Source of the DNA: a virus
Taxonomy: Duplodnaviria; Heunggongvirae; Uroviricota; Caudoviricetes
Length of the DNA: 11,787 nt
Direction: 5' to 3' (one strand)
IMG/VR virus record: IMGVR_UViG_648276671_000012
Shown here one piece after another: positions 4,475 through 11,787 of the stretch. The notes below the pieces were generated by a model that saw only the letters and a list, made by a program, of their open reading frames with translations, had not been told where the DNA came from and made no database searches. The stretch's first letter is position 1. Each line of letters opens with the position of its first letter. A program made the translations under genes and the position numbers.

Positions 4475-4680
4475 TTCATTTTCACTTTTTTAAATCCAAC
4501 GACAGACGGCTGGCATTTAAGTATTGTGAAATATTATCAAATGTAATCATCATTGATTTACAAAAGATACATTTTGCCCCGAAAGGATTCATGTCAGAAA
4601 CATCAAAAGATGATGTTCTATACTGGGAACCATGACAACACGGGCATCTAAAGTGAATATGGTTTGTAATATTGTCTACC

Positions 4681-4893
4681 TCAAAGCGCCACTACATGAA
4701 CAGCGGCAGGACCTTTAGGTCCGTTCTCAATACCAAATTCAACTTCCTGATTCTCAGTTAATGTTTTGAAATCGTTGCTCTGAATTGCTGAGAAATGGAC
4801 AAACACATCTTTGCTGCCATCTTTCGGCGTGATGAAACCAAAACCTTTTTCAGGGTTAAACCATTTCACTAAACCAGTCATTTTGTTAGACAT
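4681..4893 (-). CDS. cspI: cold-shock protein, CspA family (CspI-like), 70 aa
   Basis: [34 protein letters not shown]... with RNP1-like KGFGFI and RNP2-like VFVHF motifs. cspA-type SD (AAGG about 9 nt upstream of ATG 4893..4891) and a roughly 360-bp upstream intergenic region consistent with a long csp 5' UTR. Confidence 0.9.
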
Positions 4894-5255
4894 AATTATT
4901 ACCTTTTGAAGAAATTAGCCCTTGGGCAGAATGGTCCGAAAAAAAATATCAGAGAGAAAAACCAACAAGGAAATCTCAAGAGGTACAAATAATAAAATTA
5001 TAACAATGACTGCTTCAGATAAATTTGTAACAAACCAGAACACCATTAACGCATGATTAACCACCCATAGCAAGGATTACTTTTGTAAAGAAAAACACAG
5101 CAATGAAAGAATAGCTTTATTTATTAATAAAACGTGTCATTCTGATTAAGACCTTTTATCTTACCCTTAAGATTTCAGGAATTTTGACTCATGGAAGAGT
5201 CCTTTTTATTTAAATTTTACATTCAGCGATGTAAATGTTCCGATTTAATATTACC

Positions 5256-6283: not shown

Positions 6284-6591
6284 ATATATTTATGATGAGG
6301 ACGCTCGTGCTTATTGGCAGGATTTTCAATCTTAAAGGAGTACTGATGCTGCAGATAAGACTCAACTTTTTCTGACAATTTTTCTGCTACTTCCAGGAAG
6401 ACTTGCCGGACGCTCCTTCTGGCTGCTGCCTCATAAAACTCCAGCGCAGCTCCTTCAACACGGTCCATGGCGACATCCAGGCCAAAAATTTCACCGTCAA
6501 AGCGTTCTTTGTCCTGTAAGGCTACAGTTACCGTAACTTTATTCTCAAAATTACGGACTCCTTTCACAACCAGTTCATAGTCTTGAGTCAT
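6280..6591 (-). CDS. ydfR: DUF1327-family protein (YdfR-like), 103 aa, inserted between holin and endolysin
   Basis: ORF tightly packed in the lysis cassette: stop overlaps the endolysin start and its start is 5 nt after the holin stop. Assignment by synteny and length. Confidence 0.65.
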
Positions 6592-6595
6592 TGGA

Positions 6596-6811
6596 TTACT
6601 CTCCTCTCGCAGCCTTACGCCTGTCTTCTTTAATCTTGAAATAAAGATTTGTCAGATACGTCAGCAGGCCAAAAACCAGGCTACCCAGCACACCGATTGC
6701 AGCCCACTGTGACGGAGTTACTTTATCGAGTAACTGCAATGCCCAGAAACCAGCATTACCCGCCGATGTGCCATAGGCAACACCTGTTGTTAACTTATCC
6801 ATTGATTTCAT
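6596..6811 (-). CDS. essQ: phage 21 S-type pinholin with dual-start motif (M-K-S-M), 71 aa
   Basis: [71 protein letters not shown] closely resembles phage 21 S68/S71 as recalled. Two TMDs; GAGG SD 4-5 nt upstream of ATG 6811..6809. The track's 96-aa version (to 6886) is probably an artefactual N-terminal extension. Confidence 0.85.
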
Positions 6812-7030
6812 ATCCTCACCCCGATGTACACGGATGGTGCAATATGTTTGAAAAGATCGGAGTCTACGGGGTAGTTTTGACAGCACACGTTGTTCTCAAC
6901 GGCGCTAAAAAAACATACACATTAAAAATGTGGGTAATTATTTTGAAAGAAAGTCATATATAAAATAATAATACGAGAAATGTTTTCATATTTAGTGTAC
7001 TGTATACGGCCATTTATACAGGAAAAGCCT

Positions 7031-7201
7031 ATGTCAGAACGTAAAGACTCAAAATCACGCCGTAATTATCTCGTTAAATGTTCCTGCCCAAACTGCACCC
7101 AAGAGTCAGAACACAGTTTTTCAAGAGTACAAAAAGGTGCCCTTTTGATCTGCCCTCATTGCAACAAAGTATTCCAGACAAATCTTAAAGCTGTAGCCTG
7201 A
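7031..7201 (+). CDS. small zinc-ribbon protein, 56 aa (two CxxC pairs), strand opposite to late operon
   Basis: Internal ATG at 7031 with AGGA SD; CSCPNC...CPHC motif. Possible -35/-10 (TTGAAA, 17 bp, TAATAA) near 6943..6971. May correspond to the small protein YnfU of K-12 Qin, but this is recalled, not verified. Confidence 0.5.
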   Translation: MSERKDSKSRRNYLVKCSCPNCTQESEHSFSRVQKGALLICPHCNKVFQTNLKAVA

Positions 7202-7261
7202 TTGATTTTATTAGTAACAAGTATTTTTTATATTTTAATAATATATTTAAAGCAGATAATA

Positions 7262-7285
7262 AAAAACCCGCCTGAGCGGGTTTGA
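7262..7285. terminator. intrinsic terminator hairpin (AACCCGC-CTGA-GCGGGTT), strong on minus strand, weak on plus
   Basis: GC stem with tetraloop flanked by an A-run and a T-run. On the minus strand it is followed by U6 (downstream of cspB); on the plus strand it follows the zinc-ribbon ORF. Confidence 0.55.
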
Positions 7286-7564
7286 GATTGTGGTGCTTTT
7301 TGTGGGAGTCATCCACTTACGCACTTTGTTTTGCCATGCCAGCAGTTAGCTTCTGCTGTAAAACTATTCATGCAGCAAACCTGCACTTCACCACAATGGT
7401 TAGCATACTTTTCCTGATTAAGATTTTGCCAAATATGCTGGCCATTGTTTCATGTATTGGACCTCCTTACTTTTTATTAAAGAGATCCAATATTCACTAC
7501 TCTGTCCGTATCTCTACTCAGGCATCAGCCTTCTTCGTTATCGTATACAGACGAGCGATGAATT

Positions 7565-7780
7565 TTAATCAGTAATGATGACATTTACTGCTGCAGGACC
7601 TTTAGCACCACTCTCTATAGAGAAGGTAACCTTTTGACCTTCAAATAAGGTTCGATAATTATCATTCTGAATCGCAGAAAAATGCACAAACACATCTTTA
7701 CTACCATCAACAGGAGAAATAAAGCCGAAACCTTTATCAGCGTTAAACCATTTTACTAAACCAGTCATTTTATTTGACAT
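7565..7780 (-). CDS. cspB: cold-shock protein, CspA family (CspB-like), 71 aa
   Basis: [64 protein letters not shown]...; RNP1/RNP2 motifs. Sits between Q and the holin as cspB does in Qin. Confidence 0.9.
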
Positions 7781-8078
7781 TCTACATTCCTTAACTTGAG
7801 CCTTTCGGCATAAATGGTTTGCATAACAGAAACGACTTCGTACTTAATTGGAGAGACTCAAAGAAGGAATAAGTGAATAACACCTGAAATGAGAACTGCT
7901 TTAGTAAACTACTTCGTATATCGTCTGTTCTTCAAACCGAAGCAGTCATTAACTCATAGTTGAACATATGAAGCAATGTTTATTTTAGACATCCAGCCAC
8001 CTTCAACCCTATCAACAAAGTAGTTTTCTCCAGGAACGTGTGTATGGTGCACCAGGTTATCAGTATTAAGGAGTTTTT

Positions 8079-8284
8079 CTGTCCCCTAAAATGACAGGAA
8101 TTGCCAAAAACTTTGACTACAAAAGCAGCAAAGGTCTTATATTCCCATCCGATGGCGTATCGATGCCCAGCTTCACGTTTCAGCTCTCAATCTTCGAGAT
8201 GCAGAAGAAATTACCACAGGATTACGCGTGGAATTTTGCCGGATAAATGGTTCGCGTGGACCTTCAACTGCCAATGTTTATCCC
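8079..8284 (+). pseudogene. cspF/cspH-like cold-shock gene remnant: start codon changed to CTG, -1 frameshift near 8156, altered C-terminus
   Basis: Frame A from 8079: [26 protein letters not shown] (recalled CspF: [26 protein letters not shown]). The match then continues in another frame: [50 protein letters not shown] is intact at 8068..8073. Product reconstructed by hand across two frames. Confidence 0.6.
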
Positions 8285-8324
8285 GGGATGAGATTCAATA
8301 TCTCTATTGCCCCATTTAAAGCAC

Positions 8325-8350
8325 AAAAACCCGCTTATAAGCGGGTTTTC
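8325..8350. terminator. perfect palindromic terminator hairpin (AAAACCCGCTTA/TAAGCGGGTTTT); candidate tR' of the late promoter and terminator of the cspF-like gene
   Basis: 24-bp perfect palindrome 8326..8349 flanked by A/T runs, about 110 bp downstream of the Q stop on the minus strand. Confidence 0.55.
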
Positions 8351-8396
8351 TACTTTTTTCTAAACGTCGGATACACAAAGCCCATCGTTGAGAAAA

Positions 8397-8425
8397 TCTT
8401 ATCCATGTTTTTTGAAAAATGCAAA
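8397..8425 (-). promoter_or_regulatory. candidate late promoter PR' (with Q-utilisation region) immediately downstream of Q
   Basis: Minus strand TTGCAT (8425..8420), 17-bp spacer, TAAGAT (8402..8397). Location matches lambda-type PR' between Q and tR'. Hexamers are each 4 of 6 to consensus, so the call is positional. Confidence 0.35.
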
Positions 8426-8455
8426 CATCATGTCGCCATCTTCAGCAAAAATCAT

Positions 8456-9208
8456 TTATCTCGTCACCTTCCTCAATTGCGCTTCCGCGTATGCTTCTTC
8501 CTGCCAGCACTTTGTTACCAGTTTACCAATGACGTCCGCATACCCCTTATACCACTGATAATCGGTCAGGTCTGGTACCAGCTTCTGGACATGACGTCGT
8601 GCCAGCGTGGTCGGTAAACGACTAAACCGGTTTCCATTACAACGCCCACAAATCTTATATACCGGTACGCCATGAAAACGGGTTCTTTTTTCATCCAGAA
8701 CAATCCCTTTACCCTTACACCCTCTGCACGCTGTGCTGACTTCGCCCTTACCATGGCAATGCTGACATAGTTCCTTCACCCATTCTTCCTTGATTACAGA
8801 TTCCCCGCGTCTGTAGTGTTTCACCACTTCGCGCAATACATTATAAAATCCCGTACCTGAACAATGCTCACAGCGAGCCTTACTTGCCGCAGACCTGGAG
8901 TAATCAGCAAAGGCAAAACTCACGAGGTAAGGAATAATCTGTAACCGGATTTCTTCACTCAATTTGTTCAATGTCGGGTTATCCAGTGCCATCGCGTAAT
9001 TTAGCAGGCCTTCAATCGCAAACTGAGGGTCCTGAACACCAACTTTTGCCAGAAATAAGGCCAACCCAAGTGGTGCTTTCGACTGCACCATCCCCTGCGC
9101 TGCCATTACATCCGTAATTGTTAAACAACCGGTGCCTGTCGCTGGAGCGTCATCGCTCAATTTTGGAGATTTTGGGGAGTAATATTTTGGTAAGGCTTCA
9201 AGGTTCAT
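8456..9208 (-). CDS. quuQ: late-gene antitermination protein Q, 250 aa from internal ATG
   Basis: Track ORF 8456..9238 (260 aa); the ATG at 9208..9206 with GGAG SD gives 250 aa. Multiple Cys/His zinc-finger-like motifs ([31 protein letters not shown]). Located upstream of the PR'/tR' module and the lysis genes. Confidence 0.8.
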
Positions 9209-9221
9209 GCTCGTTCTCCAC

Positions 9222-10271
9222 TTACGCCAGTACGCCAATTGCCAGCGCGCGATCGATAAAACGAAATATCAGCTCCAGTTGGGAGCCATACTTCTCTTCA
9301 AATGCCACTGTATCCGTATGCAGCTCGTTGTGATGCTTTCTGCACAAAGGCAACACAAAGAGATCATGTGCTTTTGTTCCCATTCCGCCCTGCCCGTGAC
9401 CAATCAGATGATGCGGATCGTCGGCTGGCATACCGCAGCAAGCACACGGCTGTGTCTTAACCCAACGTGTGTATTTCTCCTTAACCCAGCGGCGACGTTT
9501 AGGCAGCTTCATGAAAGATTCCGGAGACTCTGGATCAACGGTGATGCTTACCACCGTCTTTTCCTGTGGTAGTTTTTGTTGCTGGTGGGCGTAAGGCAAC
9601 GGTGCAAGATTTTTTGTGCGTTGTTTCAATATGCTGGTGGCGGTCTGCTCTCCCGGTACGATGTCGCTCTCGCGGTACACCGAGCAGATTTTTTCCGCTG
9701 GTATTCCCAGCGAACGACGTAATACCGCTTCCGGTAGCGCGTCCGCCACCTGATTGCGGACCGCCCACCAGGATAATTCAGCCAGAGATAATTCACGTTC
9801 CTGCGTACCGCTTATTGCGTGACGGATGACGTCAATCACCCATGCTGTCAGATTTTGTTGAGCAAGCAGATCCAGTGATTCCGATGTCTGGTCACGCAGT
9901 TGGTTGTCGCAGTGCCAACACAACACCATTGCGCCGGTACCATAACGGTGAATGACTGTTTCAGAGTGATGGTAATCGCCATTAGGCCACTGGCAGGATG
10001 TAACATGACGTAATAGCCAGTCAGACAATGCGCCAACGCCGCCAGCAGCACGAATCACCCGTTCGTTACTAAAAAACGGCAGCAATGTTTTGTCTTCCGC
10101 CAGCGGCTGGCGAACGGCAGGAACGACTCCGGATGGCAGATTACGCATGCTTTTTGGTTCCGGTTCCACCAGCACTCGAGGATTATGAAATATCTGTATG
10201 GATTCACGGCCCGGCTTAAGGACCACCAGCCCAAGCTCAGGCACCAGAACAGGTCTAAGTAATACCCGCAC
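9222..10271 (-). CDS. ydfU: DUF968-family protein with C-terminal HNH (His-Me finger) nuclease-like motif (YdfU-like), 349 aa from GTG
   Basis: C-terminal CACCGMPADDPHHLIGHGQGG...HDLFVLPLCRKHHNELH fits a C-x2-C...D-x-HH...N...C-x2-HH-x3-H HNH pattern. A GTG start at 10271..10269, 1 nt after the stop of the upstream 92-aa ORF, gives 349 aa. The track's ATG at 10310 would overlap that ORF by 38 nt. Confidence 0.75.
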   Translation of the reverse strand: MRVLLRPVLVPELGLVVLKPGRESIQIFHNPRVLVEPEPKSMRNLPSGVVPAVRQPLAEDKTLLPFFSNERVIRAAGGVGALSDWLLRHVTSCQWPNGDYHHSETVIHRYGTGAMVLCWHCDNQLRDQTSESLDLLAQQNLTAWVIDVIRHAISGTQERELSLAELSWWAVRNQVADALPEAVLRRSLGIPAEKICSVYRESDIVPGEQTATSILKQRTKNLAPLPYAHQQQKLPQEKTVVSITVDPESPESFMKLPKRRRWVKEKYTRWVKTQPCACCGMPADDPHHLIGHGQGGMGTKAHDLFVLPLCRKHHNELHTDTVAFEEKYGSQLELIFRFIDRALAIGVLA

Positions 10272-11085: not shown

Positions 11086-11241
11086 TTACTCCTCAGGTTC
11101 GTAAGCTGTGAAGACAGCGACCTCCGTCTGGCCGGTTCGGATTCGTACCTCGCAGAGGTCTTTCCTCGTTACCAGTGCCGTCACTATGACGGTTAAACAG
11201 ATGACGATCAGGGCGATTAACATCGCCTTTTGCTGCTTCAT
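11086..11241 (-). CDS. hokD: Hok-family type I toxin (HokD/RelF-like), 51 aa
   Basis: MKQQKAMLIALIVICLTVIVTALVTRKDLCEVRIRTGQTEVAVFTAYEPEE: single TMD plus conserved Hok C-terminal motif. AAGGAG SD 8 nt upstream of ATG 11241..11239. Confidence 0.85.
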   Translation of the reverse strand: MKQQKAMLIALIVICLTVIVTALVTRKDLCEVRIRTGQTEVAVFTAYEPEE

Positions 11242-11298
11242 AGCCTGCTTCTCCTTGCCTTTCGGCACGTAAGAGGCTAACCTACATTTGCTAGACAT
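11086..11298 (-). CDS. mok-like in-frame upstream extension of hok (70 codons)
   Basis: In-frame extension MSSKCRLASYVPKGKEKQA + Hok, resembling the N-terminal extension of MokC as recalled (MLNTCRVPLTDRKVKEKRA + HokC). Conservation of the extension at protein level supports a mok-type regulatory reading frame. Confidence 0.45.
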   Translation of the reverse strand: MSSKCRLASYVPKGKEKQAMKQQKAMLIALIVICLTVIVTALVTRKDLCEVRIRTGQTEVAVFTAYEPEE

Positions 11299-11787
11299 AG
11301 ATTGGGCCTCAGATTAATGTTAAGCGTCTTGCAGGACGCGTAATGTTAACTGGGGCTTTTCTCTATCTGCCGTTGGTGGCATGCCCGAGGCAGATAGCCT
11401 CAAGCACCCGCTGCAATTCTACTTAACTCTTCTTTTCCCGCAAACCGTTTTTATCCAGCACAGCAAATAGCCGCATTAAGCCAATGTTGTTCATTGTGTT
11501 TACCGCCAGTATTCAATACAAATGACCGCCATGAATACCCCTACAAAAAGCGCACTTATATGTCCAAATATTAATGTCAAGACATCAACTTCCTCCATCT
11601 CCTCCGCTGTTGCGATGATAGGTATACATGATGCAAACAACCAGATTGCAACAAATAAAAACTGCAAATGTCTTTTTCATTATTCCCCCGACAATCAATG
11701 AGTAATAACATTTAAACATAGATTGACATAATCAGACATAAAAATAATCTAGGCTGCACATTTTGCTTACATCGTGTTATAGGGAAG

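Follow-up and report, generated by a model that had tools for sequence, protein, structure and literature searches.

The cspF-type locus at positions 8079..8281 of a lambdoid prophage segment raises the question of whether its broken reading frame belongs to the organism or to the assembly and, if it is real, whether the gene decayed lately in the sequenced strain or was inherited in a broken state. The window, i.e. the whole stretch of DNA that was analysed (11,787 nucleotides, 11.8 kb), has been compared with K-12, complete Escherichia coli genomes, phage records and the cspF and cspH genes of related bacteria. The comparison points with high confidence to a dead cspF allele, the three lesions of which are fixed on a distinct, recombining haplotype and were not made in this genome.

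Genomic context of the cspF remnant

The window comes from an Escherichia lambdoid prophage of the Qin type. Over positions 7000-9500 it is matched by E. coli chromosomes at up to 99.8% identity, the best match being LH13-b, for which the annotated order is gnsB, ynfN, ynfR, ymcF, cspI, rzpQ, rrrQ, ydfR, essD, ynfU, cspB, cspF, ydfT, ydfU, rem and hokD. A terminase large-subunit gene and two uncharacterised ORFs are located upstream of gnsB, and an extra hypothetical ORF lies between ydfU and rem. The neighbouring elements relevant to the csp genes and to the right end of the window are the following:

7565..7780, minus strand: cspB, the intact divergent partner gene (ORF list and annotated relatives)
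7518-7941, minus strand: cspA-type thermoregulator 5' UTR of cspB (Rfam)
4654-5039, minus strand: cspA-type thermoregulator 5' UTR of cspI (Rfam)
11236-11409, minus strand: sok antisense RNA of hokD (Rfam)

The cspF remnant is divergent from cspB and is located between the lysis genes and the Q antiterminator gene (ydfT). In K-12, cspF occupies the same place, and the gene order in both LH13-b and K-12 identifies the site as orthologous. The Rfam search over the window revealed no thermoregulator leader for the cspF remnant, and a promoter scan of 7700-8500 revealed no sigma-70 consensus site.

Lesions of the cspF reading frame

Through translation and alignment, the following elements of the remnant and its surroundings have been located:

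8068..8073, plus strand: Shine-Dalgarno sequence AAGGAG, 5 nt upstream of the initiator position; AAGGAA in K-12 (direct reading, K-12 alignment)
8079..8081, plus strand: CTG at the initiator position; TTG in K-12 cspF and in cspH, CTG also in the 17MR471-type allele
8079..8155, plus strand: N-terminal segment of cspF, codons 1-26 (codon 26 without its last base), frame 1 (translation, alignment)
8155..8156, plus strand: site of the 1-nt deletion, GGT CGT to GG-CGT (alignments to K-12, orthologues, Tritos and E. ruysiae)
8156..8280, plus strand: C-terminal segment of cspF, codons 27-68, in the frame starting at 8081 (translation; Pfam CSD match of 31.4 bits on its own)
8244..8246, plus strand: premature stop TAA in frame 1 after the frameshift (ORF 8091..8246)
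8280..8282, plus strand: junction of the 258-bp deletion (alignments to K-12, the 17MR471 allele and Tritos)
8326..8359, plus strand: stem-loop (hairpin 8326-8349) with a T-run, resembling an intrinsic terminator, between the cspF remnant and ydfT; also in K-12

The assignment of the remnant to cspF follows from its similarity to the K-12 gene (b1558, cryptic prophage Qin). The two share their position, the spacing of the Shine-Dalgarno sequence and about 89% DNA identity (E = 3e-83), a similarity far beyond chance. Both halves of the remnant align to K-12 CspF (70 residues), the first 26 codons and codons 27-68 being in different frames; the preliminary description, made from the letters of the window, had likewise read the N- and C-terminal parts of a CspF/CspH-type protein in different frames. 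The product of the gene would be a CspA-family cold-shock-domain protein of the CspF/CspH subgroup. With the missing base restored, the translation matches the Pfam domain CSD (PF00313) at 56.9 bits, the gathering cut-off being 27 bits, whereas K-12 CspF reaches 77.8 bits, i.e. 21 bits more. The frame-repaired protein has the same residue as K-12 CspF in 59 of the 68 retained codons and differs from it at nine. In contrast to K-12 cspF, the window thus possesses: (i) CTG in place of TTG; (ii) a 1-nt deletion after codon 26; (iii) the 258-bp deletion; (iv) the nine residue differences and the lower CSD score.

In the DNA alignment to K-12 cspF, one base is missing at GATGG-CGTATC, between 8155 and 8156. 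The intact state of this site is GGT CGT in K-12, in the 17MR471 allele and in cspH, and GGA CGT in E. albertii. Since the orthologues read GGT CGT, the missing base is a T. The site of the switch had been correctly placed beforehand at GGC-GT (about 8154..8158), although a C (GGC CGT) had been taken to be missing instead of the T. Translation in frame 1 from the CTG at 8079 yields 26 CspF-derived residues followed by 29 unrelated ones and would stop at 8244-8246; this product has no Pfam match. For the C-terminal two-thirds of the domain, the ORF list contains no in-frame start before the GTG at 8228 and no stop codon. An uninterrupted ORF of about 70 codons with both a start and a stop is absent, since the frame breaks at 8155/8156 and the native stop has been lost, and a complete cold-shock domain cannot be made from any single reading frame.

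The 258-bp deletion is the most destructive of the lesions. Of the K-12 sequence, 258 bp are absent from the window immediately after AATGTTTA (8280), comprising codons 69-70 of cspF (Leu-Ser), the stop codon and the ynfS gene with its flanks. The ynfS gene (b4750) has 29 codons and matches the Pfam family YnfS, and the YnfS small protein has been detected experimentally in K-12 (10.1101/511675). Past the junction, the CspF frame reads across the terminator-like hairpin and has no stop before 8615-8617 (ORF 8228..8617, same frame). Microhomology at the junction amounts to at most 1-2 nt, and the CATGAG repeats nearby do not coincide with the breakpoints.

The third change concerns the initiator. 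The MG1655 gene is annotated from TTG, and cspH translates from a leucine codon at the same position. The CTG at the initiator position and the retained Shine-Dalgarno sequence had been noticed before and are confirmed by direct reading; the intact state expected there, ATG at 8079, does not hold, the change being TTG to CTG. In reporter measurements, initiation from UUG was 10-100% of that from AUG, while CUG gave 1-2% (10.1101/063800). The CTG is likely to weaken initiation and probably lowers the expression of the cspF remnant, without being decisive alone. Because the CTG is also found in the 17MR471-type allele, which PGAP annotates as intact, it is by itself no proof of inactivation. Although the initiator of the pseudogene haplotype is CTG, its Shine-Dalgarno sequence (AAGGAG) is a better match than that of the intact K-12 cspF (AAGGAA).

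The locus carries two disabling lesions, the 1-nt deletion and the 258-bp 3' truncation, along with the weak CTG initiator, and cspF is most probably without function, as judged from the sequence. The preliminary description was right in calling it an inactivated cspF-type gene with a 1-nt deletion; its expectation of ATG was mistaken and the 3' deletion was overlooked. The annotation is corrected here on two points: TTG is the start codon of both cspF and cspH, and the lesions of the allele number three instead of two.

A functional product could still be made if ribosomes underwent programmed -1 frameshifting at GGC-GT, or if the 55-residue frame-1 product were itself functional. If the C of GGC were read twice, Gly-Arg-Ile-Asp would be restored exactly, and the Shine-Dalgarno sequence is not only retained but stronger than that of K-12. 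There is, however, no slippery heptamer of the X XXY YYZ type at CCGATGGCGTA (C CGA TGG CGT A), and the intact orthologues and relatives outside the haplotype use a single frame. Moreover, with the stop and the last two residues deleted, a restored frame would run for 112 extra codons, across the terminator, to 8617. The frame-1 product, for its part, lacks a Pfam match and would have to initiate at CTG. Translation of this kind is hardly credible, and the dead allele remains the preferred reading.

Two further genes are instructive for comparison. The 17MR471-type cspF (WP_024172454.1; L007 640-852), annotated by PGAP as an intact CDS of 70 codons and present in about 33 genomes, resembles the window in its 5' block (AAGGAG-N5-CTG, Pro3, Asn11). 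Unlike the window, it is K-12-like from codon 14 except for Cys54Tyr, has neither the frameshift nor the 3' deletion, and retains ynfS. This allele is a mosaic, of the window type to about codon 11 and of the K-12 type from codon 14, with the breakpoint in between, which indicates that exchange also takes place within the gene. The second gene, cspH, is the paralogue beside cspG on the E. coli chromosome. It belongs to the same CspF/CspH subgroup and has the same TTG start as K-12 cspF, the same N-terminus and the same ...ANVYLS C-terminus; it differs from the cspF remnant in its DNA (about 76% identity) and in its locus, and almost every genome has an intact copy. A functional back-up for the lost cspF may be provided by this gene.

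Distribution of the broken allele

The simplest objection to a pseudogene is a sequencing or assembly error, i.e. that the organism has an intact gene and that the lost base at 8155/8156, like the CTG, is an artefact, a possibility raised in the preliminary description. Single-base indels are common in assemblies, and the window does carry one substitution seen nowhere else:

8104, plus strand: window-private T to C, Val9 to Ala (best identity over 8040-8340, 99.7%)

The variant is absent from the 5,426 complete E. coli genomes, from Tritos and from E. ruysiae, and an exact-pattern search of the GTDB species representatives gave no hit. Over 8040-8340, none of the complete E. coli genomes matches the window at 100%. 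The frameshift, on the other hand, is reproduced widely. The exact frameshifted stretch of 91 nt (8110-8200) occurs in 208 of the 5,426 complete E. coli genomes, which were assembled independently, and 216 of them contain it at no less than 95% identity across 80% of its length or more; it is also present in phage Tritos and in E. ruysiae. None of the 5,426 genomes has a full-length, fully identical copy of the same stretch with the T restored, and the single match of at least 99% identity covers less than 80% of the query. In addition, the frameshift site (GATGGCGT) is not a homopolymer run, and the 258-bp deletion would still truncate a gene with its frame restored. For the frameshift and the 258-bp deletion, sequencing error is refuted, and an intact gene behind an erroneous record has next to no probability.

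The dead allele is thus present in about 13% of the complete E. coli genomes that possess the locus (216 of about 1,626), or 4% of all complete genomes. All three lesions, i.e. the CTG, the 1-nt deletion and the 258-bp deletion, have been found in each of the five carriers that were aligned: AMSCJX02, strain 190, OZ197100, LF82 and LH13-b. In all five, PGAP gives cspF the pseudogene label 'frameshifted; incomplete; partial in the middle of a contig; missing C-terminus'. The cspF pseudogene allele is therefore already known, being annotated as such in public genomes. The annotated alleles (e.g. LF82_RS08110 and LH13-b NLZ09_RS10835) have lesions and coordinates identical to those of the window and are 99.0-99.7% identical to it over 301 nt; the window differs from them by one private substitution, that at 8104. 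A literature search yielded nothing specific on reports of a cspF pseudogene or on phage Tritos.

The same three lesions are found in phage Tritos, in the species representative of E. ruysiae and in one further metagenome contig. Tritos (OV696610.1 38798-42298) is a lambdoid phage of 46 kb with a ydfU-Q-(cspF remnant)-cspB-lysis module and 99.4% identity to the window over 7950-8450; its record has no annotated CDS at the cspF remnant. The occurrence of the allele in this record indicates that it is carried by a 46-kb phage genome record too and not only by cryptic prophages. The metagenome contig, JAGZPX010000007.1, has a length of 22.9 kb and contains an Escherichia prophage segment with the same cspF pseudogene; it comes from a metagenome-assembled genome labelled Veillonella parvula and is most likely mis-binned.

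The protein search returned one apparently intact counterpart (P0001, the sole member of which comes from CP123276.1), 97% identical to the repaired window protein. If real, it would mean that an intact form of the window haplotype still circulates. The record CP123276.1 has every window-type substitution, yet at each of the three indels compared it agrees with K-12. It has the T of the frameshift site and a 258-bp segment that does not differ from that of K-12, and just upstream of the terminator-like hairpin there are four A's, against five in the window (8324-8328). The record has a length of 4,641,690 bp, compared to 4,641,652 bp for MG1655, with cspF exactly 100 bp from its MG1655 coordinate; over 3.2 kb (1640255-1643467) there are 174 substitutions and one indel relative to K-12, and the record was not found in the RefSeq complete-genome set. 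On the grounds of the K-12 indel states, the collinearity with MG1655 to within 100 bp and the absence from RefSeq, CP123276.1 has been rejected as a reliable intact copy. It is probably an artefact of reference-guided consensus calling.

Divergence and age of the haplotype

The cspF remnant lies within a patch that differs sharply from its surroundings:

7941..8407, no strand: divergent patch relative to K-12, 467 bp with about 50 substitutions and 5 indels, about 10% (alignment)

The flanks differ from K-12 by only 0.2-0.4%, with three substitutions in 6542-7940 and five in 8408-9600. A sharply bounded patch of about 10% divergence in a near-identical backbone points to recombination, not to locally accelerated decay. 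The patch begins at 7941, exactly where the match to the cspB leader ends in Rfam.

The synonymous divergence (dS) is about 0.2 in each of the pairs window/K-12, window/E. albertii and K-12/E. albertii. Equal values for all three pairs indicate that the allele represents an old lineage and not a fast-decaying local copy; by this measure the window haplotype would date back to the separation of those cspF lineages. Divergence among the carriers does not exceed 1%, so the broken form has spread comparatively recently.

These observations bear on the reading that the copy was intact until lately and gained its lesions in the lineage of the sequenced strain, which had been proposed earlier as the recent decay of one member of the csp cluster. 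The low diversity of the carriers (99.0-99.7% over 301 nt) and a spread of the broken allele that is recent relative to the age of the haplotype are in its favour, and the private Val9 to Ala change at 8104 fits ongoing neutral drift. The allele is, however, common to 216 genomes from varied hosts and serotypes, to a phage and to another Escherichia species, and the recombined patch is as far from K-12 cspF as is the cspF of E. albertii. Recent decay in situ is very unlikely; what had been taken for it is a widespread haplotype, inherited within the sharply bounded patch. The dead allele on an old haplotype, its lesions acquired elsewhere, accounts for both its spread and its divergence. The haplotype, about 10% distant from the K-12 allele, would spread through Qin-like prophages and lambdoid phages by recombination of a short block, and its present distribution is best explained by transfer through phage or recombination.

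Erosion of the coding sequence on the window lineage has also been considered. The window has a dN to cspH of 0.185 and K-12 one of 0.115, the dS values being similar and the counts few, and dN/dS between the window and K-12 is 0.36, a value resting, like the other dN/dS values, on about 20 substitutions. Together with the lower CSD score, the dN values are suggestive of erosion, though not conclusive. Tyr14 and Ser17 of the window haplotype are shared with the CspF of E. albertii, so that not every amino-acid difference reflects decay. The proposal that all non-synonymous changes are derived on the window lineage, obtained by polarisation with cspH only, is weakened accordingly, as the E. albertii cspF shows Tyr14 and Ser17 to be old states.

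The cspB-cspF-ynfS module is polymorphic among Qin-like prophages, and the dead allele could be a small marker of prophage mosaicism. Because natural null strains such as LF82 exist, the allele may be of use in studies of CspF or YnfS function. There is a slight chance that, in the accessory-gene ('moron') stretch separating Q from the lysis genes of active lambdoid phages, the haplotype deleted for cspF and ynfS is favoured or has spread by hitch-hiking; if this were so, loss of the antisense cspF/ynfS unit might benefit phage late transcription or the expression of cspB.

Mosaicism is also seen at the right end of the window. Most whole-window matches end at 11428, and the last 360 or so bases (11430-11787) have only about 85% identity to complete E. 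coli genomes. The right end thus belongs to a mosaic segment other than the usual Qin-like sequence after hokD/sok.
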